Origin: Bacteroidales bacterium OttesenSCG-928-B11
GTDB taxonomy: Bacteria; Bacteroidota; Bacteroidia; Bacteroidales; WCHB1-69
Assembly (NCBI GenBank): GCA_030267125.1
Contig: JAJDJJ010000003.1
Location: 309 to 64,308 of the forward strand
DNA length: 64,000 nucleotides
Reading direction: 5' to 3'
Shown here: piece after piece, positions 4,781 through 50,549 of the stretch
How positions within the stretch are numbered: the stretch's first letter is position 1
How the letters are laid out: each line of letters starts with the position of its first letter
Position numbers and translations under genes: made by a program
The notes under the pieces: generated by a model
What the model was told of the DNA's origin: nothing
Databases searched by the model: none
What the model saw: the letters and a program-made list of their open reading frames with translations, nothing else

Positions 4781-5098
4781 ATGGATATAGACGCAATTAT
4801 AAATATCTCTCCGGATTCTATCCTAAAAGGAATTGCCCTAAGGGTTAAAGAGAAAAGACTTGAGCAAAATCTTACACAAAAGGCATTCGCCAAACGTGCA
4901 GGCGTTGGGTATGATGCATATCGTACATTTGAGAATACCGGAGATATTACGCTTCGCAATCTTGTTTTGTGTGCCATCGCTTTAGATGATGCGGATGGTT
5001 TTACGGAATTGTTTACAAAAAAATCATATCAAAGCATAGATGAACTATTGAAAGCTCAAGAAGTTAAAAAAAGAAAGAGAGGCTCGCGCAATGAATGA
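4781..5098 (+). CDS. XRE-family HTH antitoxin (HipB-like)
   Basis: HTH_3-like LTQKAFAKRAGVGYDAYRTFENTG; overlaps the start of the HipA-like gene by 8 bp. Confidence 0.8.
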   Translation: MDIDAIINISPDSILKGIALRVKEKRLEQNLTQKAFAKRAGVGYDAYRTFENTGDITLRNLVLCAIALDDADGFTELFTKKSYQSIDELLKAQEVKKRKRGSRNE

Positions 5099-6411: not shown

Positions 6412-6433
6412 TACTTTTGACAAAAAATGTCAA
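6412..6433 (+). promoter_or_regulatory. Promoter -7 box overlapped by a TTGACA-N5-TGTCAA palindrome (candidate controller-protein operator)
   Basis: tacttttg at 6412-6419 overlaps ttgacaaaaaatgtcaa at 6417-6433, just upstream of the XRE gene. Confidence 0.55.
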
Positions 6434-6458
6434 GTCAAATTATTCAAAACGAAAAAAT

Positions 6459-6773
6459 GTGAGTATTAATCAAACTATAGGCGAAATTCTCAGAGAGAAC
6501 AGAGAAAAGAAAGGGCTACTTCTTAGGCAAGTTGCAGCTCTTCTTGATATTGATACCGCTATACTGAGTAAAATAGAACGCGGAGAGAGAAAAGCGAATA
6601 AAGGACTAATAATCAAACTTGCTGAAATTTTAGGTTTAAATAAAGAAGAATTATTAATCCATTATCTGAGCGAGAAAATTGCTTATGAATTGGTAGATGA
6701 GGATGTTGCTTCGCAAACTTTGAAAGTTGCAGAAAAAAGAGTAGAATACCTAAAAGCTCATAAGTCACAATGA
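6459..6773 (+). CDS. XRE-family HTH regulator, controller (C-protein)-like, heading the R-M operon (GTG start at 6459 preferred over the track's 6417)
   Basis: IGEILRENREKKGLLLRQVAALLDIDTAILSKIERGER HTH; ATGA overlap with the downstream R-M gene. Confidence 0.8.
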   Translation: MSINQTIGEILRENREKKGLLLRQVAALLDIDTAILSKIERGERKANKGLIIKLAEILGLNKEELLIHYLSEKIAYELVDEDVASQTLKVAEKRVEYLKAHKSQ

Positions 6774-9745
6774 ACATAAAACAACTCATAGAAAAATATC
6801 AGTCGGACAGATATTATTATCTGACTAATAAATACAACGAAACACTACTTCGGAGCGATTTCCTTGACCCTTTTTTCGAGTTGTTAGGTTGGGATATAAA
6901 AAACAATGCAGGAAAACCGACCAACGAACGAGAAGTGATTTTGGAAGAAGCATTAAAGGCAAATGCTTCGGAACATTCTAAAAAACCGGATTATACATTC
7001 CGTTTGTTTTCTGAAAGGAAATTCTTTTTAGAAGCGAAGAAACCATCTGTTTCTATCGAATCAAATAATGATACGGCAAAACAAGTCCGAAGATATGGTT
7101 TTACCGCCAAATTGAAAATTTCTGTTTTGTCGAATTTTGAATATCTTATAATTTACGACACTTCGGTAAAAGTCGAAAAAGACGATACTTTTCAGAAAGC
7201 TATCATAAAAAAATATCATTATACCGAATATGAAAGCAAGTTTGAAGAAATCAAGAAATTGATAGGAAGAGATTCTGTTTATACAGGTTCTTTTGATTTA
7301 GAATGGAAAAATATTGAGGATAAAATTAATCACTATTCGGTTGATAATCTTTTTCTTACTCAAATAAATGAATGGAGAAAAGCGTTAGGAACAGAAATTC
7401 ATAAAAACGAAGCTGAAATTAACGAGCAACAACTGAACGATATCGTTCAGAGCTATTTGAATCGGATTTTATTTCTACGAGTGTGTGAAGATAGAAATTT
7501 AGAAGATTATCAAACGCTGTTGAAATTTGCCAATGAAAATGATTTCAAGGCTTTGATTCAAAAATTTCAAGAAGCAGATAAACGATATAATTCAGGGCTA
7601 TTCGACCAATTATTAAAAGAGAAAATCATTGAAAACGTAAGTTCTGTATTTTGGTCTATTATCAGGCAATTATATTATCCTGAAAGCCCTTATTCATTCA
7701 GCGTGTTCTCGTCTGATATATTGGGACGGATTTACGAAATTTTCCTTTCAGAAAGATTAGCTATCAAGAATGGAACAGTTGAGTTGATAAAGAAACCTGA
7801 AAATATAGACAGGGACATTGTAGCTACGCCAACTTTCATTATCACGGATATTTTAAGAAGTACTGTTTTGCCTAAATGCAAGGACAAAACCGATGAAGAA
7901 ATATTGCAGTTAAAATTTGCTGATATTGCGTGCGGTTCAGGAGCTTTTTTGTTGGAACTTTATCAATTACTGAATGATATCCTTGTAGATTATTATTTGA
8001 AAAACAATAAATCCAAACTTATACAAACCAATATTAACACTTACAAACTTTCATTTGAAACAAAACGAACGCTGTTATTGAATTGTGTTTTTGGTATTGA
8101 TAAAGATTTCAATGCGGTAGAAGCCACAAAATTCGGTTTGTTATTGAAATTATTGGAAGGTGAAGATATTAATACAATTAGTAATACAAAACCTGTTTTG
8201 CCCGACCTTTCCACAACTATCTTTTTCGGAAATAGCTTATTAAATCCTAAACAAGTAGCTAAGGAAAATCAAACAATTATCAATCCTTTTGATTTTTCAA
8301 AGTTGCGTTTTGATGTGATTGTTGGCAATCCTCCTTATATGAAATCAGAGGATATGAAAAATATCACACCCCTTGAATTACCACTCTATAAAGAATATTA
8401 CGAATCCGCTTACAAACAGTTTGACAAATACTTTTTGTTTTTAGAACAAGGTTTGAATCTCCTGACCGAAGACGGCGTTTTAGGATATATTGTGCCGAGT
8501 AAGTTTACAAAAGTTGGGGCAGGAAAAAATCTCCGAAAACTACTTACAGAAAATGAGTATATATATTCAATTGTATCTTTTGGGGCAAATCAAGTTTTTA
8601 ACGATAAAACTACTTATACTTGTTTGCTCATATTAAGTAAGAAACAACATGCCACTTTCCAGTATGCCGAAGTCAATAATTTAGAAAAATGGAAAGTCCG
8701 AGAACCTGAATCAATGAAGTTTTCCGAGAAAAAAACTTCCGATTTAACCGATGATGTTTGGATATTGGTTTCTCCCGAATTAACCAACGTTTACGATAAA
8801 ATAGTTACTCAAAGCATAAAGTTAGTAAATTTAGTTGGGGATGAAAATATTTTCAATGGCATACAAACCAGTGCGAACAATATTTATATTTTCACTCCAA
8901 CAAAGGAAGATGACAAGTATTATTATTGGGGCGACAACAATCAAATAGAGAAAAACTTTACGAAACCCTATTTTAAAACGTCTTCGGGCGATGATAATTT
9001 GTACACTTATCGCACCTTTAAACCCAATGCAAGAGTCATTTATCCATACAAAAAGGTCGGCGATAAAGTCGAATTAATATCCTTAATTACAATCGAAAAG
9101 AAATATCCACATGCTTATGCCTATCTTCAAAAGCATAAAAACAAATTGGATAATCCAAGCAGGGATACAAAACCCATTCCTCAAACAAAAAATGAATGGT
9201 ATAGATATGGAAGACACCAAAGTTTGGACAGTTGCGGATTGTCTTCAAAAATTATTGTTGGAGTTCTTTCTGTTGGCGATAAATATGCCGTTGATACTCA
9301 CGGAACATTGATTTCTTCGGGCGGAACAGCAGGTTATTGCGTGGTTGCAGTTCCCGAAAATTCAGACTACTCCATTTATTACATTCAAGCTATTCTAAAC
9401 TCAAAATATTTAGAATGGTTTAGTTCCTTATATGGCGAAGTTTTCAGAGGCGGCTATATTGCGAGAGGGACAAAGGTTTTAACGAATCTTCCCATTAAGG
9501 AAATAGATTTTTCAAATTTACAAGAAAAAGAGCTACACGATAAAATTGTGTCAATACAAAAAGAATTAATTGCAATCCACGATGAAATAGATGCAAATGC
9601 AGGAAATAAAAGAGTTCTAACACCACTGCAAGGACAATTTCAGCGAGAAAAAGCAGAATTAGATAATACATTAGCCCAATTGTACAATTTAGGCAACGAA
9701 GATTCATTAATCCCTTTAATCAAAGAATTGTATGAAGCTAATTAA
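6770..9745 (+). CDS. Type IIG (Eco57I/BpmI-like) bifunctional restriction endonuclease-N6A methyltransferase
   Basis: N-terminal nuclease KKPDY...FLEAKK, motif I DIACGSGAF, motif IV VGNPPY, C-terminal target-recognition region. The 991-aa size and the separate downstream MTase match the Eco57I architecture. Confidence 0.9.
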   Translation: MNIKQLIEKYQSDRYYYLTNKYNETLLRSDFLDPFFELLGWDIKNNAGKPTNEREVILEEALKANASEHSKKPDYTFRLFSERKFFLEAKKPSVSIESNNDTAKQVRRYGFTAKLKISVLSNFEYLIIYDTSVKVEKDDTFQKAIIKKYHYTEYESKFEEIKKLIGRDSVYTGSFDLEWKNIEDKINHYSVDNLFLTQINEWRKALGTEIHKNEAEINEQQLNDIVQSYLNRILFLRVCEDRNLEDYQTLLKFANENDFKALIQKFQEADKRYNSGLFDQLLKEKIIENVSSVFWSIIRQLYYPESPYSFSVFSSDILGRIYEIFLSERLAIKNGTVELIKKPENIDRDIVATPTFIITDILRSTVLPKCKDKTDEEILQLKFADIACGSGAFLLELYQLLNDILVDYYLKNNKSKLIQTNINTYKLSFETKRTLLLNCVFGIDKDFNAVEATKFGLLLKLLEGEDINTISNTKPVLPDLSTTIFFGNSLLNPKQVAKENQTIINPFDFSKLRFDVIVGNPPYMKSEDMKNITPLELPLYKEYYESAYKQFDKYFLFLEQGLNLLTEDGVLGYIVPSKFTKVGAGKNLRKLLTENEYIYSIVSFGANQVFNDKTTYTCLLILSKKQHATFQYAEVNNLEKWKVREPESMKFSEKKTSDLTDDVWILVSPELTNVYDKIVTQSIKLVNLVGDENIFNGIQTSANNIYIFTPTKEDDKYYYWGDNNQIEKNFTKPYFKTSSGDDNLYTYRTFKPNARVIYPYKKVGDKVELISLITIEKKYPHAYAYLQKHKNKLDNPSRDTKPIPQTKNEWYRYGRHQSLDSCGLSSKIIVGVLSVGDKYAVDTHGTLISSGGTAGYCVVAVPENSDYSIYYIQAILNSKYLEWFSSLYGEVFRGGYIARGTKVLTNLPIKEIDFSNLQEKELHDKIVSIQKELIAIHDEIDANAGNKRVLTPLQGQFQREKAELDNTLAQLYNLGNEDSLIPLIKELYEAN

Positions 9746-11339
9746 AAATGAATCTGCCGAAAAATTGCGAGGCGGTTTTTACACGCCTGAACCTATTGCC
9801 TCATTCATTCTGAAATGGGGAATTAATGGGAGTGTTGACTATGACATTTTAGAACCAAGTTGCGGCGATGGCGTTTTTTTAGAACAATTGCGAGAAAGTA
9901 ATCATAGATTTAATTCCGTTACCGCTATTGAATTTGATGAAATTGAAGCCGAAAAGGCAGAACGTGTAAACTTGAATAACAAAACAGTTATTAATACCGA
10001 TTTTCATTTATATTGCAACGAAACAATTCAGCGGTTTGACTTAATTGTTGGAAATCCGCCTTATATCCGCTATCAATATTTCGACAAAGACCAGCAAATA
10101 GAAGCAGATAAGATATTTAATCGGGCAAAATTAAAATATTCAAAACTTACTAATGCGTGGGTTTCTTTTGTTGTTGGTTCAAGTCTACTTCTCAAAGAAA
10201 AAGGGAAAATAGGATTTGTAATTCCTGCCGAACTGCTTCAGGTTTCTTATGCCCAACAACTACGTGAATTTTTAGGGCATTTTTACAACAAAATCAATAT
10301 TATCTCTTTTGAAAAATTGGTTTTTCCTGATATTCAACAGGAAGTTGTTCTTTTGCTTTGCGAGAAAAACGATAGCAATTCGCATTTAATTGAACACTTA
10401 GAACTAAGAAACGCTTCGGATTTAGCAAAATTAGATGTAAATAAGTTAAAAAGCCCAACCAAAAAGATTGATTTCAAATCTAAAAAATGGACGTATTATT
10501 TTTTGGAACAGGAAGAAATTGATTTTTTGGAGAAAATAGCTTCTGATAAAAACATATCGACTATTGGGAAATATGCTGACGTAGAAGTTGGAATTACGAC
10601 AGGAGCAAATAATTATTTTACGGTTCCATACTCAATAGTGCAATTTTATCAACTTGAAGAATTTGCTAAACCGATGGTTGGCAGAAGCGTTCAAGTTAAC
10701 AGCATTGTTTTTACTCAAAAAGATTGGCAGAAAAATGTACAAAGTGAAGCGAAAGCTAATTTATTGGTATTTCCTCCAAAAGAGCAACTGAATGGGCGCT
10801 TGGGAGTTAAAAGTTATTTGGAATATGGTGAATCTGTCGGGATAAACAAAGGTTACAAAACAGGTATTCGCGATGATTGGTTTGTGATTCCATCTATAAA
10901 ATTATCTGAAGCATTATTTATCCGTAGAAATAATTTGTTCCCTCGTTTGATTTTAAACGAAGCAGGAGCCTACACAACAGATACCATGCACAGAGTATTT
11001 ATAAAAGAGCAAACAAATAAGTATGCTTTTATTGCCAGTTTTTATAATTCCCTCTCTTTAGCATTTTCCGAAATTGTAGGAAGAAGCTATGGCGGCGGCG
11101 TCCTCGAATTGATGCCAAGCGAAGCAGAAAAAATCCTTCTTCCCTATTGTGCAGAAAATGAAGAATTGCTTTCTGTCATTGACGGAATGATGCGTAAAAA
11201 GAAAAACATTGATGAAATATTGAAAATCACTAACGATGAGATTCTGAAACATGGATACGGATTTTCGGATAAAGAGATAAAATTTGCGGATAGTATTTGG
11301 AAAAAGCTGTCAGCAAGAAGGTTGAATAGGAATAAATAG
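9732..11339 (+). CDS. Companion N6-adenine DNA methyltransferase (M.Eco57I-like)
   Basis: KLRGGFYTP, LEPSCGDG (motif I), VGNPPYIRYQ (motif IV), GRSYGGGVLELMPSE. Confidence 0.9.
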   Translation: MKLIKNESAEKLRGGFYTPEPIASFILKWGINGSVDYDILEPSCGDGVFLEQLRESNHRFNSVTAIEFDEIEAEKAERVNLNNKTVINTDFHLYCNETIQRFDLIVGNPPYIRYQYFDKDQQIEADKIFNRAKLKYSKLTNAWVSFVVGSSLLLKEKGKIGFVIPAELLQVSYAQQLREFLGHFYNKINIISFEKLVFPDIQQEVVLLLCEKNDSNSHLIEHLELRNASDLAKLDVNKLKSPTKKIDFKSKKWTYYFLEQEEIDFLEKIASDKNISTIGKYADVEVGITTGANNYFTVPYSIVQFYQLEEFAKPMVGRSVQVNSIVFTQKDWQKNVQSEAKANLLVFPPKEQLNGRLGVKSYLEYGESVGINKGYKTGIRDDWFVIPSIKLSEALFIRRNNLFPRLILNEAGAYTTDTMHRVFIKEQTNKYAFIASFYNSLSLAFSEIVGRSYGGGVLELMPSEAEKILLPYCAENEELLSVIDGMMRKKKNIDEILKITNDEILKHGYGFSDKEIKFADSIWKKLSARRLNRNK

Positions 11340-39380: not shown

Positions 39381-40229
39381 TTATATCCACTTCTCTTCTA
39401 TAACATTTCCTTCTATCCCGATGATCACTTTTTTAATCGGTATTTTGCGTGAAGCTTGTTCGGCAGCCATTTTCACCAATTGTAGCAATCCTCCGCAACA
39501 GGGCACTTCCATCATAACGACAGTCAACGTGTTAATGTTCGCCTCATCTATCATGGCGGTGATTTTCTCCACGTAACTCTCTTTGCCACTGTCTAATTTA
39601 GGACAAGCGATAGCCAATGTGTGATTCTTGATAAATCGATCGTGGAAATTCCCGTACGAAAAAGCGGTGCAATCAGCGGCGATGACCACGTCGGCACGAT
39701 CAAAATAACCGGACTGCGGATTCAGCAAATGCAGTTGCACCGGCCAGTGTCTCAGCTGTGAAGGCACATCGTTTGTTATACTTGTTGAATTTTTAGGGGC
39801 AAAGGCTCTCGCTCCGCTTCCCGGGCAGGCGTGTGGCTGTTGAAACCCACCGCAGCCCTCTTCTCTCTTTTCCATATTCATATCTATCTCTATATTATGT
39901 TCTTTTAAATATTGCAAACCTTGTTTTAGAAGTTCCGTTTCGCCATGATCTTTCAAATGATTCAGGTGAGCCAGTATAGTTTTTTCACCTTTGGGCGCCA
40001 TTCTTTCCATCACGGCAATCTCGTCATAAGGCTCAGCCTCACGCTCTTCAAGTTCTATCGCGCCTACGGGGCAATCGCCGATACAAGCACCCAACCCATC
40101 GCAATAGAGTTCGCTAATCATTCTGGCTTTCCCGTCAATGAGCTGCAATGCACCTTCGTGGCAACCGCTGACACACAGCCCGCAGCCATTACATTTTTCC
40201 TCGTCTATTTTTATGATTGTCCTTTTCAT
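39381..40229 (-). CDS. 4Fe-4S ferredoxin-domain protein commonly linked to hcp
   Basis: CNGCGLCVSGC, CDGLGACIGDCP, WPVQL, ACPKLD, MEVPCCGG. Confidence 0.88.
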   Translation of the reverse strand: MKRTIIKIDEEKCNGCGLCVSGCHEGALQLIDGKARMISELYCDGLGACIGDCPVGAIELEEREAEPYDEIAVMERMAPKGEKTILAHLNHLKDHGETELLKQGLQYLKEHNIEIDMNMEKREEGCGGFQQPHACPGSGARAFAPKNSTSITNDVPSQLRHWPVQLHLLNPQSGYFDRADVVIAADCTAFSYGNFHDRFIKNHTLAIACPKLDSGKESYVEKITAMIDEANINTLTVVMMEVPCCGGLLQLVKMAAEQASRKIPIKKVIIGIEGNVIEEKWI

Positions 40230-40294
40230 TACTCTTTTATTTTTCTGTTTCGATTAATTTTCGGCAAAAATATAGCGATAAAAAGAGACAAAGC

Positions 40295-40308
40295 GTAACA
40301 TTTGTTAC
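40295..40308. promoter_or_regulatory. HcpR-type (Crp/Fnr) binding palindrome between divergent promoters
   Basis: GTAAC-ATTT-GTTAC between a minus-strand -7 box (40265-40272) and a plus-strand TATCTTTG (40319-40326); resembles the GTAAC-N4-GTTAC HcpR-type box. Confidence 0.7.
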
Positions 40309-40355
40309 AGACAGCGTTTATCTTTGCATTTTTTACAGATAATGACTTTATTCGT

Positions 40356-40616
40356 ATGCAACAATCACATATAGAGAGAGAAAAAAAGACTATAGCCTTG
40401 ATGATTCGCCTCTATTGTCGAAAAAAAGAGAAGAACAGCGAGTTGTGTTCGTTGTGCAGGGAGTTGATTGAATACGCTCATCAGCGACTTGATCATTGTC
40501 CATTCGGCGAGGCAAAAACGAGCTGTAAAAATTGTGCCATACACTGTTATGTTCCAATAGAACAAAAGAGAATTCGCCAAGTTATGCGCTATGGACAAGC
40601 GGGGGACAGAGCGTGA
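40356..40616 (+). pseudogene. ygbA: YgbA (nitrous oxide-stimulated promoter) family gene, 3'-truncated
   Basis: IEREKKTIALMIRLYC...CPFGEAKTSCKNCAIHCY...VMRY, then diverges and lacks the usual GPRM..HP tail. Confidence 0.7.
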
Positions 40617-40678
40617 GTAATTGGTAGCGGACTAAAATTTTAAAAAAACGCTATCTTTGCATATTATAAAAACCTAAT

Positions 40679-42154
40679 ATGATGTTCGAACAAACTTTTA
40701 AAAATATTGACGATATACTTCACAAAGATGCGGGTTGCGGTAGTGAATTGGATTATGTGGAGCAAACCTCTTGGATTTTGTTTCTCAAATACTTAGACGA
40801 TTTGGAGAAAGACCGAGCCACAGCCGCCGAACTCACGGGAAAGACCTATACGCCTATTATCGACAAGGATTATCAATGGACTGTTTGGGCAATGCCAAAA
40901 GGCAAGGATGGAAAACTCGACCACCACAAAGCGCTCACGGGAGATGATCTTACCGATTTTGTGAACAACAAACTCTTTCCGTATCTCAAAAAGTTTAAAC
41001 AGAACGCCGAAAGCGCCGACACTATTGAATACAAAATCGGAGAGATTTTCAGCGAACTAAAAAATCGCATACAAAGTGGCTACAATTTGCGTGAAGTGAT
41101 TAACCGCATTGACGAGTTGCGTTTCCGTACCCATGCTGAAAAGCACGAAATGAGTCATTTGTACGAGGACAAAATCAAAAACATGGGAAACGCGGGACGA
41201 AACGGCGGCGAATATTACACACCTCGTCCACTTATCACTACGATTGTAAAAGTGGTCGCCCCTGAAATCGGCGATAAAATTTATGATGGAGCAGTTGGTA
41301 GCGCGGGATTCCTTTGCGAAGCGTTTTCTTATCTAAAAAACCGCCCTTCGGCAGGCTCAAGTAGCGGTTTATCTACAAAAGAAACCGAGATATTGCAAAA
41401 ACGCTCTTTTTATGGCAAAGAGAAAAAATCCTTGGCATACATCATCGGCATTATGAATATGATTTTTCATGGCGTGGAAGCTCCAAACATTATTCATACC
41501 AACACGCTAGCCGAAAACCTTGCTGATATACAAGAAAAAGACCGCTACGATGTGGTACTTGCCAATCCGCCTTTTGGTGGAAAGGAACGTGCCGAAGTGC
41601 AACAAAACTTCCCGATAAAAACAGGCGAAACCGCTTCGCTCTTTTTGCAACACTTCATGAAAATTCTGAAAGCAGGCGGAAAAGCAGGTGTAGTAATTAA
41701 AAACACCTTTTTGAGTAATACAGACAATGCCACCGTTGCCATACGCAAAACCTTGTTGGAAAGCTGTAATCTGCACACCGTATTGGATTTACCCGGCGGA
41801 ACGTTTACAGGCGCCGGAGTGAAAACGGTCGTTTTGTTTTTTGAAAAAGGAAAACCCACCCAAAATGTTTGGTTTTATCAATTAAACCTCGACCGAAATT
41901 TGGGCAAAACAAATCCGCTGAACGAAAACGACCTTGCGGAATTTATTGAACTTCAAAAGACTTTTGCAGAAACTGAAAACTCTTGGACGGTTAATGTCAA
42001 AGATATTGACCAAAGCACGTTTGATTTGAGCGTAAAAAACCCCAATAAGAAAGAAGTTGTTCAACTTCGCTCACCACTCGAGATATTGGAAGAAATAAAA
42101 GCATTGGACGAAGAAAGTACGGAAATTCTATTGTCAATAAAAGAGTTGCTATGA
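40679..42154 (+). CDS. hsdM: Type I R-M methyltransferase subunit (EcoAI-like)
   Basis: GEYYTPRP, YDGAVGSAGF, LANPPFGG. Confidence 0.95.
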   Translation: MMFEQTFKNIDDILHKDAGCGSELDYVEQTSWILFLKYLDDLEKDRATAAELTGKTYTPIIDKDYQWTVWAMPKGKDGKLDHHKALTGDDLTDFVNNKLFPYLKKFKQNAESADTIEYKIGEIFSELKNRIQSGYNLREVINRIDELRFRTHAEKHEMSHLYEDKIKNMGNAGRNGGEYYTPRPLITTIVKVVAPEIGDKIYDGAVGSAGFLCEAFSYLKNRPSAGSSSGLSTKETEILQKRSFYGKEKKSLAYIIGIMNMIFHGVEAPNIIHTNTLAENLADIQEKDRYDVVLANPPFGGKERAEVQQNFPIKTGETASLFLQHFMKILKAGGKAGVVIKNTFLSNTDNATVAIRKTLLESCNLHTVLDLPGGTFTGAGVKTVVLFFEKGKPTQNVWFYQLNLDRNLGKTNPLNENDLAEFIELQKTFAETENSWTVNVKDIDQSTFDLSVKNPNKKEVVQLRSPLEILEEIKALDEESTEILLSIKELL

Positions 42155-43026
42155 AAAACGAAATAATACTATACAGCCCTAATGAGCTTAGCAAACATAT
42201 TGAAGTACGACTTGATGAAGATAAAGAAACGCTTTGGCTAACTCAAGAACAAATCGCCCAACTTTTCGAAAGAGATAGAAGCGTAATAACCAAACATTTG
42301 AAAAATATTTTCAAAGAAGAGGAGTTGGACGAAAAAGTGGTTAGTGCATTTTTTGCACTAACCACTCAACACGGAGCCATTAAAGGAAAAACACAGACAA
42401 TGAAAGTGAAATTTTATAATCTTGACGCTATTTTGTCAGTCGGCTACCGTGTTAATTCCAAACAAGGCACACAGTTTAGAATATGGGCAAACAAAATCCT
42501 GAAAGACTATTTATTAAAAGGTTATGCCATAAATAACCGAATGAACCGCATTGAGGACAATGTGTCGGCTCTTTCGGAAAAAGTAAACGAGATTGACCTG
42601 CAAATAAACACACATCTAATTCCCACACAAGGCGTATTTTTCGATGGGCAAGTGTTTGACGCTTACGAATTGGCTTCTAAAATCATTCGCTCAGCCAAGC
42701 AAAGCATAATTTTGATAGATAATTACATAGACGAAACCACATTGATGCATTTATCAAAGAAGAAAAAAGGCGTAAGCGTGTTGTTGCTTACAAAAAACAT
42801 AAGCAAACAACTGACCTTGGATATTGAAAAAGCCAGCGAACAATACGGTAATTTCACAGCAAAACCGTTTACCCACAGCCACGACCGTTTTCTAATTCTC
42901 GACCAAAAAGAAATCTATCATCTTGGAGCTTCGCTCAAAGATTTAGGCAGAAAATGGTTTGCTTTCTCTAAAATGGATAAACATTCGGTAAGCGGTATTA
43001 TTAACTCAATTTCTGAAATGCTATGA
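42151..43026 (+). CDS. RhuM/virulence-protein-like DNA-binding domain fused to a PLD-like C-terminal domain
   Basis: TLWLTQEQIAQLF, YNLDAILSVGYRVNS.QGTQFRIWA; C-terminal IDNY...HDRFLILD..YHLGASLKDLG. Confidence 0.8.
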   Translation: MKNEIILYSPNELSKHIEVRLDEDKETLWLTQEQIAQLFERDRSVITKHLKNIFKEEELDEKVVSAFFALTTQHGAIKGKTQTMKVKFYNLDAILSVGYRVNSKQGTQFRIWANKILKDYLLKGYAINNRMNRIEDNVSALSEKVNEIDLQINTHLIPTQGVFFDGQVFDAYELASKIIRSAKQSIILIDNYIDETTLMHLSKKKKGVSVLLLTKNISKQLTLDIEKASEQYGNFTAKPFTHSHDRFLILDQKEIYHLGASLKDLGRKWFAFSKMDKHSVSGIINSISEML

Positions 43027-44258
43027 TGAAGTGGAAGAGAAAGAAATTAAATGAGTTTTGCGAGTTCAGTAATGGACTTTGGACAGGGAAGAAACCTCCT
43101 TTTCAAACTGTTGGAGTAATAAGAAATACAAATTTCACAAAAGATTGTCTTCTTGATGATAGTGATATCGTTTATTTAGAAGTTGAACAATCTCAATTTC
43201 AAAAAAGGAAATTGCAATACGGTGATATAATTCTTGAAAAGTCAGGTGGTGGACCAAAACAACCTGTTGGAAGAGTTGTGATTTTTGATAAGACTGATGG
43301 TGATTTTTCATTTAGCAACTTTACTTCTGTAATTAGGATTAAGAATAAAGATGAAGTTGATTTCAACTTTCTACACAGATGTCTATTCTTGGAATACATT
43401 TCAGGTGCTACTGAAAAAATGCAAAGTCATTCGACAGGCATCCGAAATTTGAAATTTGATGAGTATAAAGAAATAGAAATCCCACTTCCCCCTCTCCCCG
43501 AACAACAACGCATTGTTTCCATATTAGATAAAGCCTTTTCGGCTATTGAGCGAAGTCGAAATAATGCCGAACAAAACCTTAAAAATGCAAAAGAATTGTT
43601 TGAGAGTTATTTGCAGGGGATATTTGAGAATGGGAATTGGGAAACGAAAAAGCTAAATGAAATAACTGAAGTAAAAGATGGCACACACGATAGTCCAAAA
43701 TATATTAAAGAAGGAATTCCTTTTGTCACTCAAAAGAATATCAAACCTGATGGATTTTCATTTGGTGATACAAAATTCATCACAGAAACAGACCACGAAA
43801 AGTTTTACAAGCGTTCAAATGTGACTTATGGTGATATTCTAATTTCAATGATTGGAGCAAATAGGGGAATGGCTGCAATAGTAGATGATAAAAGAGTTTT
43901 CAGTATCAAGAATGTTGGCTTGATCAAGTCAAGTGATAACATTAATATGAATTACCTACTTTATTATTTGAAATCTTCAGTAGCAATGAAATATGTTTTG
44001 TATATGTCAAATGGTGGAGCACAAGAATTTGTTGGATTGACAGCGTTGAGAAGTTTTCCAATTCCCCTTCCTCCACTTAAAGAACAACAAACCATCGTCC
44101 ACCAATTAGATGCCTTGCGAGCTGAAACACAAAAACTGGAAACGGTGTATCAAAAGAAAATAGCAGATTTGGAGGAACTGAAAAAAAGTATCTTGCAGAA
44201 GGCGTTCAATGGGGAGCTTGTCGAACCTACAGGGGAGTTAAAAATAGAAAAAAAATAA
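43023..44258 (+). CDS. hsdS: Type I R-M specificity subunit
   Basis: Two TRDs each followed by a conserved IPLPPL.EQQ.IV helix; ends LKKSILQKAFNGEL. Confidence 0.95.
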   Translation: MMKWKRKKLNEFCEFSNGLWTGKKPPFQTVGVIRNTNFTKDCLLDDSDIVYLEVEQSQFQKRKLQYGDIILEKSGGGPKQPVGRVVIFDKTDGDFSFSNFTSVIRIKNKDEVDFNFLHRCLFLEYISGATEKMQSHSTGIRNLKFDEYKEIEIPLPPLPEQQRIVSILDKAFSAIERSRNNAEQNLKNAKELFESYLQGIFENGNWETKKLNEITEVKDGTHDSPKYIKEGIPFVTQKNIKPDGFSFGDTKFITETDHEKFYKRSNVTYGDILISMIGANRGMAAIVDDKRVFSIKNVGLIKSSDNINMNYLLYYLKSSVAMKYVLYMSNGGAQEFVGLTALRSFPIPLPPLKEQQTIVHQLDALRAETQKLETVYQKKIADLEELKKSILQKAFNGELVEPTGELKIEKK

Positions 44259-44262
44259 TTGT

Positions 44263-46098
44263 ATGAAAGTAAAATTAAGTCAAGCCGTTAAAATGTTTTT
44301 TAGCAGCTCATCACTTGAGATGGTTTACTTAGAAGCTATTGCAAACGCATTAGATGCAAATGCAACGGAGATTGAAATCAAAATATCAATGAAGGCATTT
44401 AATCAATCTGAAACTCTTCAAATCGAAATTTCTGATAATGGCGAAGGTTTAACAGATGAGCGTTACAAGAAATTTTCAAAATTATTCGATGTTGAAGAAA
44501 GCACACACAAAGGCTTAGGGCGATTAGTTTATTTATGCTATTTCGAAGATGTAAAGGTTGTTAGCTATTTTGAAAAAACAAAAAAAAGAACTTTTAACTT
44601 CTCTGATGATTTTGAAGAAGAAAAATTCAAAATAGACAAGGTTGAAGAAAAGGAGTCCGGAACATGTTTTAAAATGACAAACTATACTCTTCAAAAAATT
44701 GCTAAGAATGATTACATCCATCCGAGAAAAATTAAGCAACGGATTTTGGAAGAATTTTATTCAAGACTTTTCCATCTAAAAAAACAAGGATGTTCGCTTA
44801 ATATTAAAATAGAATCAATTATTGATGGTAAAAAAATGGTGTCAACGATTGATAGTACAGATATTCCTGAATTTACCGATGTGGAATTAAGCAGCTCTAT
44901 TAACCTCATTGATAAATTTATTTTGTATTATTCAATAAAAGAAGTTGACCCACAAGATTCATCTTTGATTGCTGCAATTTCTGTTGATAATAGGACTGTT
45001 AAGGTGGATTTAATTTCAAATGAAAATATGTTGCCTGGCTATGAAATGGTATTTCTGCTCTATTCAGATTTTTTCGTTGGTAAAATTGATGCAGCAAGGC
45101 AAAATTTGACTATTTCTCCACAGGAGTTGAAAGATGTTCAAACCATATTTAGGAAAGAAGTCATTTCTATAATTGAAGCTAAAATACCAAGAATTAAAAA
45201 GAGGAACAGTGATGTTAAGGCAGGGCTTATTTCAAAATTCCCTCATTTAAGCAGTTATTTTGACACGAATAATATTGGATATATTCCACGAAACGAGATT
45301 TTGAAAAAAGCACAAAATGAATTTTTCCAAGAGCAAAAAGAAATTTTAGATGCAACATCCTTAAATGATGAGCAATTTGAAAAATCAGTAGAATTATCAT
45401 CAAGAGCATTGACGGAATATATTTTGTTCCGACAATTAACTGTTGAAAAATTAAAAAAATCAACAGACTCTGAGAGTGAAGCTGAGATACATAAATTATT
45501 TGCTTTAATGCGTAAAGATGGTAGATTTGAAAAGAAAAATTGCATTGATGACATTTATAAAAATAGCGCTTGGCTACTTGATGACAAATACATGACTTAT
45601 GAAACCATACTCAGTGACAGAGAAATGGGTGAACTAATAAAAGAAATAACGGATGATGAAGGTGTTGAAGATGATAATAGACCAGATATGGCTTTGATAT
45701 TTTCTAATAATCCTGAAAACAAAAAACCTTTCGATGTTGTAATTGTAGAGTTTAAAAAAAGAGGGATTTCATTAGAAGAAAACATGAAAGTTGTAACTCA
45801 ACTTGAAAAACGTGCGCGAAAATTAATGAAACATTACAATAATCAAATTCAAAGAATTTGGTTTTATGGAATTATAGAGTTTAATGAAGAAGTAGAGATG
45901 CAATTAGCAGGAGAATACACTGAATTATATTCTTCTGGGAAAATGTATTATAGAGAAACGAATATAGCGATATCACTTAATCCGAAAATAACATTGCCGA
46001 TCGGAGTTTTTATATGGGATTTAGATGCTGTAATAAGTGATGCTGATGCTCGCAATTCGACATTCTTGAATTTAGTGAAAAGTAAGTTTATTCAGTAA
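44263..46098 (+). CDS. GHKL ATPase fused to a PD-(D/E)XK nuclease-like domain, embedded between hsdS and hsdR
   Basis: LEAIANALDA, SDNGEG, KGLGR; C-terminal EAEIH...AWLLDDKY...RPDM...VEFKKRG...QL. Confidence 0.78.
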   Translation: MKVKLSQAVKMFFSSSSLEMVYLEAIANALDANATEIEIKISMKAFNQSETLQIEISDNGEGLTDERYKKFSKLFDVEESTHKGLGRLVYLCYFEDVKVVSYFEKTKKRTFNFSDDFEEEKFKIDKVEEKESGTCFKMTNYTLQKIAKNDYIHPRKIKQRILEEFYSRLFHLKKQGCSLNIKIESIIDGKKMVSTIDSTDIPEFTDVELSSSINLIDKFILYYSIKEVDPQDSSLIAAISVDNRTVKVDLISNENMLPGYEMVFLLYSDFFVGKIDAARQNLTISPQELKDVQTIFRKEVISIIEAKIPRIKKRNSDVKAGLISKFPHLSSYFDTNNIGYIPRNEILKKAQNEFFQEQKEILDATSLNDEQFEKSVELSSRALTEYILFRQLTVEKLKKSTDSESEAEIHKLFALMRKDGRFEKKNCIDDIYKNSAWLLDDKYMTYETILSDREMGELIKEITDDEGVEDDNRPDMALIFSNNPENKKPFDVVIVEFKKRGISLEENMKVVTQLEKRARKLMKHYNNQIQRIWFYGIIEFNEEVEMQLAGEYTELYSSGKMYYRETNIAISLNPKITLPIGVFIWDLDAVISDADARNSTFLNLVKSKFIQ

Positions 46099-46100
46099 AT

Positions 46101-48464
46101 ATGAACGAAGCAGAAACCAGAGCGGAATTAATCGACCCCAAGCTAAAGGCTTGCGGTTGGGGTGTTGTTGAAGGCTCTAAAGTTCTTCGAGAACATGCTA
46201 TTACTGCGGGAAAAATTCAAACAGGCGGTGGTAGGGGAAAAAGAGAAATCGCCGATTATGTGTTGGTTTACAAAGGAATTAAATTGGCTGTGATTGAAGC
46301 CAAAAGTGATGAATTGGAAGTTGGCGAAGGTGTAATGCAAGCCAAAAAGTATGCGGAAAAATTAAAATTAGAAACCACATACAGCGCCAACGGAAAAGAA
46401 ATTTACCAAATCTGCCTAAAAACAGGCGAAGAAAGTTTGGTAAGCGATTTTCTAACTCCCGAACAACTTTGGGATAAAACTTTTCCTGAGCTTATCGAAG
46501 GAAATGCTTCGGACATTGAGCGTAGTCGAAATACCGAACTATGGCGAGAAAAATTTGCATCAGTACCATTTGAAGACAAAAGCGGAACATGGCAACTTCG
46601 GTATTATCAGGAAATTGCGGTGCAAAAAACAGTCGAAGCAATTGCACAAAACAAAGAACGTATTTTGCTTACCCTTGCCACAGGAACGGGAAAAACGGCA
46701 ATCGCTTTTCAAATCGCTTGGAAACTGTTTCAAACCCGCTGGAATTTAAAACGAGACGGCAGCCGCCGTCCAAGAGTTTTATTTTTAGCAGACCGTAATA
46801 TTTTGGCAGACCAAGCCTACAACTCATTTTCGGCATTTCCCGAAGATGCTTTGGTACGGATTAAGCCAAACGAAATAAAGAAAAACGGAAAAGTTCCGAC
46901 TAACGGAAGTATTTTCTTTACTATTTTTCAGACCTTTATGTCGGGCATCGACAGAGAAGGAAATCCTTCGCCTTACTTTGGCGAATATCCTGCCAATTAT
47001 TTTGATTTTATCATCATCGACGAATGCCACCGAGGTGGAGCCAATGACGAAAGCAATTGGCGGGGAATTTTGGATTACTTTTCTCCCGCAGTGCAATTGG
47101 GTTTGACCGCTACACCAAAACGAAAAGATAATGTGGATACGTATCGCTATTTTGGCGAACCGGTTTACATTTATTCGCTCAAAGAAGGTATCAACGATGG
47201 TTTTTTAACGCCATTCAAAGTAAAACGCATCAAAACAACTTTGGACGATTACCGCTACACTTCGGACGATACCGTTGTAGAAGGCGAAATCGAAGAAGGC
47301 AAACTCTATGAAGAGAAAGACTTTAACCGCACCATTGAAATCGTAGAACGAGAAACCAAGCGGGTGAACATATACTTGGAAGAAGCCAATCAAAAAGAAA
47401 AGGCTATCGTTTTCTGTGCCAATCAAGGTCATGCGGCATTGATTCGAGATTTAATCAATCAAAATGCAAAAAGTAAAGACCCTTTTTACTGTGTTCGCGT
47501 AACCGCCAACGATGGCGAAGAAGGCGAACGATTGTTGAGAGAATTTCAGGATAACGAAAAAATAATTCCTACCATTCTCACAACTTCACAAAAGCTTTCT
47601 ACGGGTGTTGATGCACGGAATATTCGCAATATTGTGTTGCTTCGTCCAGTCAATTCGATGATTGAGTTTAAACAAATAGTCGGGCGTGGAACCCGTTTGT
47701 TTGATGGGAAAGAGTTTTTTACCATTTACGATTTTGTTGATGCGTACAAACATTTTTCCGATCCCGAATGGGACGGAGAACCTTTGGAAAGTGAGCCGAC
47801 AGATGTTGTAACCGAACCGAGAGTACCATACGAGCCAAATGAGCCAAAAGAACCGACTAAAATAGAACGCAAACAGAAAATCAAAATCAAATTGCGAAAT
47901 GGAAAAGAAAGAGAAATACAATCAATGATTTCAACTTCTTTTTGGAGTGCAGAAGGCAAGCCTATTTCAGCAGAAGAATTTTTAAATAATCTGTTTGGCG
48001 AGTTACCTAAACTTTTCAAAGATGAAGAAGAATTGCGGAAACTGTGGAGTAATCCCATTACCCGAAAGGTTTTGTTAGAGAATTTGGAATCGGCAGGTTT
48101 CCCGAAAGACGATTTACTGACTTTGCAAAAGTTGGTAGATATGGAAAAGAGCGACTTATATGATGTGTTGGAATACGTTTTCAATGGCGACTACATCGCA
48201 ATGACAAGAGAAGCCAGAGCCAAAGCAGCCGAAGCAACAATCTTTGCCTTACTCAACGACCAACAAAAAGAGTTTATCTCTTTCGTTTTGAGCAAATACA
48301 TTGAAACAGGTGTGGACGAGCTCGACCAAGACAAGTTGCCGATTTTGCTCACAAACAAATATCAATCCTTGGAAGACGCAAAAGAAATTTTAGGCGATGT
48401 GGCAAACATCAGCAAGTTGTTTGTAGAATTTCAAGAGCACCTTTATTTAAAAAGAATAGCATGA
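46101..48464 (+). CDS. hsdR: Type I R-M restriction subunit (EcoAI/EcoEI-like)
   Basis: NEAETRAELID, ADYVL..IEAK nuclease, LRYYQ, ATGTGKT, DECH, TATP, QIVGRGTR. Confidence 0.95.
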   Translation: MNEAETRAELIDPKLKACGWGVVEGSKVLREHAITAGKIQTGGGRGKREIADYVLVYKGIKLAVIEAKSDELEVGEGVMQAKKYAEKLKLETTYSANGKEIYQICLKTGEESLVSDFLTPEQLWDKTFPELIEGNASDIERSRNTELWREKFASVPFEDKSGTWQLRYYQEIAVQKTVEAIAQNKERILLTLATGTGKTAIAFQIAWKLFQTRWNLKRDGSRRPRVLFLADRNILADQAYNSFSAFPEDALVRIKPNEIKKNGKVPTNGSIFFTIFQTFMSGIDREGNPSPYFGEYPANYFDFIIIDECHRGGANDESNWRGILDYFSPAVQLGLTATPKRKDNVDTYRYFGEPVYIYSLKEGINDGFLTPFKVKRIKTTLDDYRYTSDDTVVEGEIEEGKLYEEKDFNRTIEIVERETKRVNIYLEEANQKEKAIVFCANQGHAALIRDLINQNAKSKDPFYCVRVTANDGEEGERLLREFQDNEKIIPTILTTSQKLSTGVDARNIRNIVLLRPVNSMIEFKQIVGRGTRLFDGKEFFTIYDFVDAYKHFSDPEWDGEPLESEPTDVVTEPRVPYEPNEPKEPTKIERKQKIKIKLRNGKEREIQSMISTSFWSAEGKPISAEEFLNNLFGELPKLFKDEEELRKLWSNPITRKVLLENLESAGFPKDDLLTLQKLVDMEKSDLYDVLEYVFNGDYIAMTREARAKAAEATIFALLNDQQKEFISFVLSKYIETGVDELDQDKLPILLTNKYQSLEDAKEILGDVANISKLFVEFQEHLYLKRIA

Positions 48465-48629
48465 TATAAATATAGAATTAAATATTGTAATCAAACCGAA
48501 CTTTTCGGCCGAGCGTTATATGTCACTCTAAAGAAAGCTATGGAATAATGTCTCTGTCGGAAACAGAAATTCAAATTATCAAAACTTGCGGAAAATGGAA
48601 GTTTTGATAATTTATAATATCTTTGCACG

Positions 48630-49856
48630 ATGAAGAATTTGATAGAAAGAACAGAATATCTTGATAAACTATGGTCATACAAGGATAAAGACATTATCAA
48701 AGTTGTAACTGGTTTACGCCGTTCGGGTAAATCTACGTTGTTAGAATTGTTCAGGAATCATTTATTGAAAAATAACGTAATGCCTGAACAAATACAGCTA
48801 TATAATTTCGAATTGCCTGAAAATTTTCTGAACAAAACATGGGAAACGCTTTATTTTGAAATAAAATCGAAGTTGCAGACAGATAAATCAAATTACATTT
48901 TTCTCGATGAAATTCAGAATATTGCCAATTTTGAAAAATTAGTTGATGGACTTTATGCAACCGAAAATACAGATGTCTATATCACAGGTTCCAATGCCAA
49001 TTTACTATCAAGTGAATTAGCTACTTTATTGAGTGGTAGATATATAGAAGTTTCTATTTTACCTTTTTCTTTCGCCGAATATTTGGAAGCCAGAAGCATT
49101 GATATAAGCAATAAATACTTGAATTACGAAGCATTATTTTATGATTATGTAAACGAAACTTCGTTGCCGAAAGGCGTTGATTTGAGGGAAGAAGGTTTTG
49201 ATAAAATTTACGAATACCTTGAAGCTTTGTATACTACAATTATCGAAAAAGATATAACGCAACGATATAAAATCAACGATAAGCGAGCATTTGGAAATGT
49301 CGCTAAATTTTTGGCAGGCAATATCGGCAATCAAGTATCGCCGAGTAGCATTTCAAAAGCATTAAAAGCGGATAATCAAAATATTCACCATGCCACTGTA
49401 GAAAAATTTATTGGGTATTTAGTCGAAAGTTTTGTCTTTTATTGCGTCAATCGTTTCGATGTGAAAGGGAAAAAACAACTGGCTACACAGGAGAAATATT
49501 ACTTGGTGGATTTGGGTTTACTAAACATATTGCTTGGCAGAGAAAAAACAGCAGACAGAGGGCATATTCTTGAGAATATTGTATATCTTGAACTGCTAAG
49601 ACGAGGTTGCAAAATCTGGACAGGTGCGCTTCGTAACAGTGAGATTGATTTTGTTGTTAAAAATCGAATAGGAGAAATCGAATATTACCAAGTTTCGTGG
49701 GAAATTTCAAGCACAGAAACTGAAGAACGTGAATTTAGTCCATTGAAAAAAGTGAAAGACAATTATCCTAAATTTCTACTTACGACTGAATCATTTCCTC
49801 AAAGTAGAGATGGAATAATTCACAGAAATGTATTTGAATGGTTATTAGAGAAATAG
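48630..49856 (+). CDS. AAA+ ATPase with DUF4143 domain
   Basis: GLRRSGKS, LDEIQ, TGSNA, LSGRY, KYYLVDLG, EIDFV. Confidence 0.88.
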   Translation: MKNLIERTEYLDKLWSYKDKDIIKVVTGLRRSGKSTLLELFRNHLLKNNVMPEQIQLYNFELPENFLNKTWETLYFEIKSKLQTDKSNYIFLDEIQNIANFEKLVDGLYATENTDVYITGSNANLLSSELATLLSGRYIEVSILPFSFAEYLEARSIDISNKYLNYEALFYDYVNETSLPKGVDLREEGFDKIYEYLEALYTTIIEKDITQRYKINDKRAFGNVAKFLAGNIGNQVSPSSISKALKADNQNIHHATVEKFIGYLVESFVFYCVNRFDVKGKKQLATQEKYYLVDLGLLNILLGREKTADRGHILENIVYLELLRRGCKIWTGALRNSEIDFVVKNRIGEIEYYQVSWEISSTETEEREFSPLKKVKDNYPKFLLTTESFPQSRDGIIHRNVFEWLLEK

Positions 49857-49886
49857 AATCCAAACAAAATAATATGTAAACAGAAG

Positions 49887-50549
49887 ATGAACACTGACTT
49901 ACTATTTTTCTGCACCATGTGCCGCGAGAAACCGCTCGAAGAGATTGCCAACCTGAAATGTACGATCAATCATAAAATCAAAACGTACAAAAAAGGAGAA
50001 TACATTGCTTGTCAGGGAGATCACATTTCGCACCTCTATATGCTCTCTAAGGGCAAGGTGAAAACAGAGATCATTTCCGAATCCGGATTTACAATTTCGG
50101 TGGAAGAGATTGAAGCGCCTTATCCGTTGGCGGCCGCATTTCTCTTTTCTGACAACAGTTGCTTCCCGGTGGATGTAATCGCTTTAGAAGATTGCGAAAT
50201 AATCCTGATCAGCAAAGCAGCTATCGAAACCCAAATCGCGAAGTGCTCCGGATTTTTGAAAGGTTTTATGGCTTACATCTCTAATAGCGTGCAATCTCTG
50301 TCGGAAAGGCTGAAGATATTTTCGCAAAAAGGGATCAAAGCCAAAATCGCATACTACATTTTGCGACACGACAAAAAAGGGTCTTTCGAATTGGGAAGAA
50401 GCATTGTTTCGTTGGCCGAATATTTTGGAGTAGAACGCCCGTCGCTGTCAAGAGCTATTTCTGAGATGGTGAAAGATGGAGTTATTGAATACGAAAATGG
50501 CAAAGGGAAGATTTTGAAATATAATGATCTGAATGAGTTATTAGGATGA
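49887..50549 (+). CDS. Crp/Fnr-family regulator (HcpR-like)
   Basis: cNMP-like domain YKKGEYIACQGD...PVDVIALEDC; HTH LAEYFGVERPSLSR typical of HcpR. Confidence 0.85.
   Translation: MNTDLLFFCTMCREKPLEEIANLKCTINHKIKTYKKGEYIACQGDHISHLYMLSKGKVKTEIISESGFTISVEEIEAPYPLAAAFLFSDNSCFPVDVIALEDCEIILISKAAIETQIAKCSGFLKGFMAYISNSVQSLSERLKIFSQKGIKAKIAYYILRHDKKGSFELGRSIVSLAEYFGVERPSLSRAISEMVKDGVIEYENGKGKILKYNDLNELLG

Follow-up and report, generated by a model that had tools for sequence, protein, structure and literature searches.

The type I restriction-modification (R-M) operon of Bacteroidales bacterium OttesenSCG-928-B11 raises the question of what a gene for a predicted GHKL ATPase joined to a nuclease does between hsdS and hsdR, and whether its product serves the restriction enzyme or works on its own. 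The operon lies on contig JAJDJJ010000003.1, of which a stretch of 64,000 nucleotides (nt), hereafter the window, was analysed; all coordinates without a locus prefix refer to it. The gene product in question is a 611-amino-acid (aa) open reading frame (ORF) at 44263-46098, named P0001, while a second ORF of 676 aa at 11601-13631, named P0002, encodes a diverged relative. We consider it likely that P0001 is a single-polypeptide, ATP-gated DNA endonuclease of the class described as paraMORC3 or GHKL-type (Type 1D) Shedu, and that it acts autonomously. Its gene is an optional cargo of the hsdS-hsdR slot.

Architecture and class of P0001 and P0002

Pfam gave a single match for P0001, HATPase_c_3 (E-value, E = 1.3e-8, residues 17-130), a domain also detected in 65 of 70 relatives. 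The full-length AlphaFold model (predicted local distance difference test score, pLDDT, 78.9) was matched by Foldseek to the N-terminal modules of PMS1, MutL, MLH1, GyrB, SMCHD1 and Hsp90, with E from 1e-10 to 1e-9. These alignments cover 337-436 columns and thus reach past the ATP-binding domain into the middle domain. As modelled, the N-terminal part is a GHKL domain followed by a transducer-type middle domain, the boundary of which was set by reading the secondary structure of the model. The sole PHROGs match, to phrog_6203 (1.2e-15), a family of unknown function, also fell on the N-terminal part. Since GHKL modules dominated the whole-protein Foldseek list and hid the nuclease, the nuclease domain was modelled alone (residues 370-611, from a 105-row alignment, A4), reaching a pLDDT of 94.5. 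Comparison of this model with 48,161 chains by VIA-align placed the nuclease domain of Bacillus cereus Shedu first (8ti9_E, Z 10.1, root-mean-square deviation 3.5, 160 residues aligned), followed by another B. cereus Shedu chain (8ti8_A, Z 9.7) and by Escherichia coli SduA (8ps4_A, Z 9.0). After the Shedu chains came R.BspD6I (8.8), N.BspD6I (8.2), McrC (7.5) and FokI (7.1). Sequence searches of the PDB with P0001, with its 43-row family alignment and with a diverse alignment returned only the ATP-binding motifs of MutL, PMS2 and kinases, and no nuclease. A predicted complex of two nuclease domains (370-611, A4) scored 0.22 against a mark of 0.42, in a run made without controls.

The motif series reported for both proteins by an earlier note on this DNA was borne out in the two translations. 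P0001 carries E24..N28, D58-N-G-x-G62, K83-G-x-G-R87, E406..H410, W437-LLD440, S451-D, P474-D475, E496-F-K498 and Q513, and P0002 carries E27..N31, D77-N-G-x-G81, K104-G-x-G-R108, E477..H481, W502-LLD505, S516-D, P534-D535 and E559-F-K561, its GHKL motifs being recognised through the family alignment to those of P0001. Among the 70 relatives, at 19-56% identity, the ATPase residues E24, N28, D58, G60, G62 and G84 and the nuclease residues E406, W437, D440, S451, D475, E496 and K498 are invariant, a pattern that points to selection on the ATPase and the nuclease alike. Within the 43 aligned rows of the P0001 family, Q513 likewise does not vary.

That the two proteins form one family, a GHKL ATPase joined to a PD-(D/E)XK nuclease, had been proposed in the same note, and pairwise and profile alignment extend the likeness beyond the GHKL domain. 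BLASTP between P0001 and P0002 gave E = 7e-6 for the C-terminal thirds and 4e-5 for the N-terminal parts, and the two family alignments (A2, 43 rows, for P0001; A3, 39 rows, for P0002) were joined by hhalign at 98.8% (E = 6.8e-17) over 546 columns, residues 22-605 against 34-684. Taken alone, the nuclease parts of the two families still gave 96.3% (E = 2e-9). Judged by these alignments, P0001 and P0002 are homologous end to end. They share only 20% identity (alignment A5), and the closest relatives of each belong to other taxa, at 80-85% identity, which makes two separate acquisitions plausible, as the note had suggested for so diverged a pair.

An architecture of this kind is already in print. 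Iyer, Abhiman and Aravind (2008; PMC2292703) described paraMORC3 as a GHKL domain, an S5 domain and a C-terminal nuclease of restriction-endonuclease fold with E-D-ExK motifs. By their account it occurs sporadically, with a prevalence in Proteobacteria and Bacteroidetes, and keeps company with R-M genes and mobile elements. Shedu proteins with an N-terminal GHKL domain and a linked middle domain were catalogued within Type 1D in the preprint of Gu et al. (2023), which gives motifs I-IV of B. cereus Shedu as E, D, ExK and Q and places 602 of 5,499 Shedu genes inside R-M loci and 87 in BREX loci. Adams et al. (2025; PMC12137116) reported that VcSduA (GHKL plus DUF4263), whose domain organisation they equate with paraMORC3, protects E. 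coli against T1-like phages, that E27A and K557A abolish protection, and that the effect holds whichever of the tested multiplicities of infection is used, which they take to mean that the phage is restricted directly and the host stays viable. The claim of an undescribed defence system therefore did not hold, and at the level of the class the system is a catalogued one.

The link of P0001 with this class was examined at the sequence level through a family with both hallmarks. A search of 400 Bacteroidota genomes with PF14082 (SduA_C) gave matches in 33, and two ORFs of 587 aa carried HATPase_c_3 (around 1e-28) together with SduA_C, which at 32.5 and 28.3 bits lies just over its threshold of 27. 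NCBI lists one protein of their family under the name 'Shedu anti-phage system protein SduA domain-containing protein'. This GHKL-SduA_C family was aligned in 39 rows (A6), and 29 Bacteroidota ORFs represented canonical, non-GHKL Shedu (A8). BLASTP of P0001 against one GHKL-SduA_C protein was not significant (E = 0.39), and profiles alone connect them. At full length, the P0001 family matched the GHKL-SduA_C family at 94.6% (E = 6.5e-8, 450 columns) with E..H, W, S, RPD and ExK in register, and the P0002 family at 68% (E = 4.8e-5, 460 columns); the N-terminal parts on the P0001 side gave 94.2% (E = 1.2e-7, 217 columns, residues 17-259). Concerning the nuclease columns, a diverse profile of the P0001 superfamily matched GHKL-SduA_C at 97.2% (E = 3.4e-11, 163 columns) and the P0002 family did so at 94.7% (E = 6.1e-8, 148 columns). 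Against canonical Shedu the P0002 family reached 60% (E = 8.8e-5, 174 columns), where the positive control, GHKL-SduA_C against canonical Shedu, gave 97.4% (E = 1e-11, 149 columns). P0001 hence displays a GHKL ATPase, a middle domain, an E-D-ExK(+Q) nuclease and whole-length homology to GHKL-SduA_C proteins, its paraMORC3 membership at the sequence level passing through that family. In our reading of the profiles and models, P0001 and P0002 would represent divergent subfamilies of the GHKL-type Shedu/paraMORC3 class, lying below the reach of current family models.

The hsdS-hsdR slot and the distribution of the P0001 family

If P0001 were a fixed part of a type I enzyme, related genes would be expected to keep that company. 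A scan of species-representative genomes yielded 52 P0001-related loci at 57-84% identity, mostly in Bacteroidota, with others labelled Ignavibacteriota, Acidobacteriota, Fibrobacterota, Pseudomonadota and Chloroflexota. Neighbouring ORFs were called by a longest-ORF rule, and the 329 within four genes on either side were clustered. Genes resembling hsd genes occurred within four genes in 18 of the 52 loci, a lower bound as many contigs are short, and no such gene was seen within that distance in the other 34. Where present, their order varies (G, the GHKL nuclease gene): S-G-R in L002, L007, L009 and L045; S-G with IS200 or other ORFs before R in L001, L005 and L047; M-G-S in L006; R-x-G in L011 and L044; G-R-x-M-S in L040; and G-S..R in L048. 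Among 140 neighbours within two genes that were scanned further, leaving aside the hsd and RhuM clusters and the near-duplicate loci L043 and L044 (of L025 and L011), the families were heterogeneous: AAA_21 in four loci, IS200 transposase, integrase and SMC_N in three each, and EcoRI methylase, Eco57I and HNH in two each, besides housekeeping genes such as RNA polymerase. Relatives thus adjoin R-M systems of several types, and recurrence beside R-M, as foreseen in the earlier note, stands. The linkage of the P0001 family to R-M is recurrent and not obligatory.

A tree was built from 43 full-length rows, excluding partial, split or duplicate loci (L003, L014, L042, L043, L044, L046, L048, L049, L050 and L052). 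The hsd label changes eight times on it by parsimony, at least four changes being forced by well-supported branches, and is clustered all the same, since only 4 of 500 shuffles gave a count as low. In the closest relatives the identities of the GHKL protein and of HsdR track each other (81 and 82% in L002, 80 and 83% in L045). Over all linked loci the HsdR partners are 48-83% identical and include a different HsdR type of about 1000 aa. The profile of the P0001 family retrieved 1,341 cluster representatives at E <= 0.001. Two P0001-family genes are split between two frames by tblastn, at L044:8001-9835 (8001-9197 and 9194-9835) and L049:8450-9827 (8450-9256 and 9249-9827), and may be frameshifted, decaying copies or assembly errors. 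Dysgonomonas sp. 216 has two copies on different scaffolds (L025 and L043) that share their four neighbouring gene clusters on either side, which suggests that a block of about eight genes was duplicated or is mobile.

Seen from the side of the restriction enzyme, the association is looser still. HsdR homologues occurred in 62 of 400 other genomes, and none of the 29 best hsdR loci (55-83% identity) had P0001-like DNA within 1.5 kb of hsdR. In three of them (L113, L127 and L129) hsdS abuts hsdR and the slot is empty. Ten ORFs upstream of hsdR, picked from the other hsdR loci (L106-L134) and scanned with Pfam, included an IS200-type Y1 transposase (L106-L108), PIN (L109, plus a weak second case), PDDEXK_3 (L133), a UvrD-like helicase (L111), DUF3037 (L134), Lcl_C (L114) and a 338-aa ORF without a family (L128:3885-4898). 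Slots empty or otherwise filled in related operons mark the hsdS-hsdR junction as a cargo site, of which P0001 is one occupant among many.

In the window itself, P0001 begins 4 nt after the end of hsdS and ends 2 nt before the start of hsdR, an arrangement that the ORF list and the Pfam matches of the neighbours uphold (Table 1). Spacers this short suggest that P0001 is co-transcribed with the hsd genes, and translational coupling is probable. A scan of 40100-50000 found 32 promoter-like sites (29.9 expected) and 15 terminator-like sites (7.0 expected), none of them between hsdS, P0001 and hsdR; its sigma-70 consensus is ill-suited to Bacteroidota. The operon holds two cargo genes and not one, as a RhuM-family gene stands between hsdM and hsdS with a 4-nt overlap on each side. 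RhuM-like ORFs are present in 6 of the 52 P0001-related loci. Directly downstream of hsdR, after a gap of 165 nt, an AAA_14/DUF4143 ATPase gene (48630-49856) may belong to the same defence island.

Table 1. Positions of the type I operon, of the predicted domains of P0001 and of the P0002 locus in the window.
Feature	Coordinates	Strand	Basis
Eco57I-like type IIG restriction-methylase	6770..9745	+	Pfam Eco57I 7.9e-37, TaqI_C, HSDR_N-like
M.Eco57I-like methylase	9732..11339	+	Pfam M_Eco57I_C 7.9e-39
P0002, diverged relative of P0001 with the same three-part architecture, 676 aa	11601..13631	+	profile-profile match to P0001 family
hsdM	40679..42154	+	Pfam N6_Mtase 2.7e-61 and HsdM_N
RhuM-family gene, non-R-M cargo	42151..43026	+	Pfam Virulence_RhuM 3e-21
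hsdS	43023..44258	+	Pfam Methylase_S 2.9e-39, two stretches
P0001, GHKL ATPase/Shedu-like nuclease gene (predicted), 611 aa	44263..46098	+	Pfam HATPase_c_3 1.3e-8; full-length model pLDDT 78.9
P0001 GHKL ATP-binding domain, about residues 1-150	44263..44712	+	E24, N28, D58xGxG62, G84xG86; Pfam match 17-130
P0001 beta-rich middle (transducer/S5-like) domain, about residues 151-283	44713..45111	+	strands 180-268 in model
P0001 helical linker, about residues 284-400	45112..45462	+	helices 286-398 in model; not assigned to a family
P0001 PD-(D/E)XK nuclease domain, Shedu type, about residues 401-611	45463..46095	+	motifs I E406(/H410), II D475, III E496/K498, IV Q513
hsdR	46101..48464	+	Pfam ResIII 7.3e-39, EcoEI_R_C 1.3e-23, HSDR_N

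A probable autonomous nuclease and its alternatives

By analogy with MutL, MORC and VcSduA, ATP binding would dimerise the GHKL domains of P0001 into a clamp around DNA, and closure of the clamp would license cleavage of invading DNA by the nuclease domains. P0001 would then provide an autonomous second line of defence, complementing the type I R-M system and not forming part of it. The 34 of 52 relatives without hsd-like neighbours and the absence of the gene from all 29 hsdR loci were counted for autonomy. The same counts bear on the guard role put forward in the earlier note. Spelled out on the model of PrrC, the nuclease would stay latent on HsdR/M/S, be released once the R-M complex is disabled by a phage anti-restriction protein such as Ocr, ArdA or Stp, and then cut DNA, possibly by way of abortive infection. 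P0001 does occupy the same slot as prrC in EcoprrI (PMC12707154), in a type I locus that PrrC is described in that review as guarding, in agreement with the note; the spacers of P0001 imply co-expression, and eight of the nine members of its clade are linked to hsd genes and move with them across families, with GHKL and HsdR identities tracking. However, a gene lacking hsd-like neighbours in most loci differs from PrrC, which is reportedly almost exclusively embedded (Payne et al., preprint), the hsd label is gained or lost repeatedly on the tree in varying arrangements, and the HsdR partners are diverse and include a second HsdR type. VcSduA belongs to this class, yet it functions by itself in E. 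coli and protects whatever the multiplicity of infection tested (PMC12137116). An obligate guard role is thus not supported, and we regard the guardian mechanism for P0001 as unlikely, also within the hsd-linked clade, where gene position speaks for it. It is likewise improbable, in our estimation, that the GHKL nucleases of this clade are functionally wired to R-M in a broader sense, either as guardians against anti-restriction or as users of HsdMS methylation in telling self from non-self. Were they so wired, GHKL-Shedu nucleases, with P0002 standing beside an Eco57I-like system, would make up a general R-M back-up module unseen by the models of defence finders.

Iyer et al. (PMC2292703) had proposed for paraMORCs an integral role in the restriction enzyme, as an ATP-driven factor that loops or processes DNA and links the recognition to the cleavage site, or that degrades translocated DNA. 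The operon position and the coupling of P0001 agree with such an accessory subunit, but HsdR has a nuclease and a motor of its own (HSDR_N and ResIII), the enzyme evidently needs no P0001, as the gene is missing from all 29 related hsdR loci inspected and hsdS directly abuts hsdR in three, and elsewhere the slot holds unrelated cargo (transposase, PIN, PDDEXK_3, helicase). We consider this role very improbable. Least probable of all, to the point of being nearly negligible, is a gene outside defence, such as a sensor histidine kinase or a MutL-like repair factor, even though database records name relatives 'sensor histidine kinase' or 'ATP-binding protein' and NCBIfam gives weak matches to histidine kinases and MutL. 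These matches are restricted to the ATP-binding motifs and score far below the cut-offs: 25.2 against 180 for MutL TIGR00585 (residues 24-67 only), 24.8 against 646 for AtoS, and 13-25 bits against 135-1123 for the kinases as a group. Pfam detected no HisKA, response-regulator or MutL_C domain at E <= 1, and the ATP-binding domain sits at the N-terminus (17-130). The fold resembles the N-terminal modules of MutL, Hsp90 and GyrB and not kinases, and the C-terminal part is a restriction-type nuclease. The family is also rare and patchy, being found in 1 of 400 other Bacteroidota genomes and in several phyla, among mobile and defence genes, which fits a housekeeping repair function poorly. The record names can accordingly be corrected.

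Several results weigh against an autonomous Shedu-class nuclease. PF14082 matched none of the 70 relatives at E <= 0.01, and neither it nor PADLOC matched P0001 or P0002 at E <= 1. By the operational PF14082 criterion the two proteins are not Shedu, and the link rests on comparison of profiles and structures. Some of these comparisons are modest: in the nuclease columns, the narrow P0001 family reached only 25% against GHKL-SduA_C (E = 7.5e-4, 101 columns) and the diverse profile 60% against canonical Shedu (E = 8.6e-5, 93 columns), and the 105-row alignment with full-length columns gave 7.8% against canonical Shedu. In VIA-align the best Shedu chain, at 10.1, is only slightly ahead of the nearest other PD-(D/E)XK nuclease, R.BspD6I at 8.8, and Foldseek returned no PDB match for the nuclease model at E <= 0.001, with Shedu entries such as 8ps5 (E = 0.069) and 8ti9_C (E = 0.089) among its weak rows. 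VcSduA and P0001 are likened through the published description and not by direct sequence alignment, and we infer all three of the defence role, the DNA substrate and the ATP gating of the P0001 family. Finally, the clade of nine rows from several families to which P0001 belongs, eight of them hsd-linked, would fit a nuclease that depends on the R-M enzyme for its function. With these points counted, the autonomous, ATP-gated nuclease remains the reading that we consider likely.

The second locus and comparison with known systems

P0002 has no Pfam match at E <= 1. It lies about 30 kb from P0001, each of the two beside a different type of R-M system, and the description of both as embedded in R-M loci applies in part: P0001 is inside the type I operon, whereas P0002 is merely adjacent, starting 261 nt downstream of the M.Eco57I-like methylase gene. 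Just upstream of the Eco57I-like R-M genes are a helix-turn-helix gene and a HipA-like kinase, forming a toxin-antitoxin pair (4781-6176), and a second helix-turn-helix gene (6417-6773). The gene after P0002 (13727-14845) encodes a Fic/DOC protein that bears a winged-helix domain. The region from 4.8 to 14.8 kb looks like a defence and toxin-antitoxin island.

Among the candidates scored, P0002 has 193 relatives, and its family occurs in 8 of the 400 other Bacteroidota genomes, with zero overlap with the single genome that holds the P0001 family. The suggestion that the two proteins act together gains no support, and in the sampled genomes each family is found without the other. Neighbourhoods were inspected for five close metagenome relatives (L135-L139) and seven distant ones. 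An Eco57I/TaqI_C methylase lies 30 nt upstream of the gene in L135. In L136 the neighbour is an N6_Mtase-helicase fusion of 1,921 aa (L136:2813-8575, minus strand), a large R-M-like enzyme with an N6_Mtase/Eco57I methylase region near its N-terminus and a helicase C-terminal domain. In L139 the gene stands two genes upstream of an hsdM/S/R set, the HsdM and HsdR of which are 79 and 75% identical to those of the window, so that a single type I lineage can be found with either GHKL-nuclease subfamily; the P0002-family gene here (L139:385-2429) is broken near residue 477, which leaves ORFs of 486 and 191 aa. No R-M gene was found among the ORFs tested in L137 and L138. The seven distant relatives and one P0001-family locus (L104) have mostly unrelated neighbours, with the exceptions of Mrr_cat in two, N6_N4_Mtase in one, nSTAND3 and RteC.

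As the class, its defence role and its embedding in R-M loci are already in print, the discovery is modest. What is new is a pair of divergent subfamilies missed by Pfam SduA_C and PADLOC, and one genome that carries both, each beside a different R-M type. The literature consulted on GHKL, MORC and R-M, on paraMORC3 and VcSduA and on embedded PrrC held no paper on these two subfamilies, which may be included in the supplementary lists of Gu et al. (Table S3) and Payne et al. The GHKL Shedu-type class thus extends past the detection of Pfam SduA_C and PADLOC v2, and censuses of defence systems undercount it. Additionally, with related operons in which the slot is empty or refilled by IS200, PIN, PDDEXK_3 or a helicase, the locus is a clean natural case for asking if hsdS-hsdR cargo acts alone or with the restriction enzyme.

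Among the closest described systems is VcSduA of the WASA lineage of Vibrio cholerae, in which one chain likewise joins a GHKL ATPase at the N-terminus, a clamp-like middle domain and a PD-(D/E)XK nuclease at the C-terminus; it is also encoded by a stand-alone gene found in defence islands. The residues it requires, the glutamate of GHKL motif I (E27) and the lysine of the nuclease ExK (K557), correspond to E24 and K498 in P0001. In contrast, its nuclease is recognised as DUF4263/SduA_C, which is true of none of the 70 relatives of the present families, and its gene is in VSP-II and not in a type I operon. ParaMORC3 shares the GHKL domain, the S5-type middle, the C-terminal restriction-endonuclease fold with E-D-ExK and the association with R-M and mobile elements, although the proposal of 2008 was DNA looping within R-M, whereas more recent studies favour a nuclease acting by itself. 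Canonical Shedu (B. cereus SduA, 8ti8/8ti9; E. coli SduA, 8ps4/8ps5) supplies the top three structural matches to the nuclease fold (Z 9.0-10.1), has the motif order E, D, ExK, Q, and is often embedded in R-M or BREX loci. It differs in its N-terminal regulator, the Shedu N-terminal domain, in place of which P0001 is predicted to have a GHKL clamp. Its activation through tetramers and octamers is not known to extend to P0001, and its profile similarity to the P0001 class is marginal.

PrrC of EcoprrI resembles P0001 in being encoded inside a type I R-M locus and in having an NTPase domain followed by a nuclease domain, but it is described as a tRNA-Lys anticodon nuclease (PMC12707154), unlike a GHKL ATPase with a DNA-type PD-(D/E)XK domain, and no PrrC family was detected for P0001 in the Pfam or PADLOC scans. 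According to the preprint of Payne et al. PrrC is almost always embedded, while the P0001 family mostly is not (18 of 52 loci, a lower bound). TgvAB of V. cholerae VPI-2 is unrelated in sequence, being described as a two-gene, GmrSD-like, modification-dependent type IV system, and shares with the reading favoured here its way of working: it is an independent defence module inside a type I R-M operon that is active without HsdR and complements R-M (PMC11411939).

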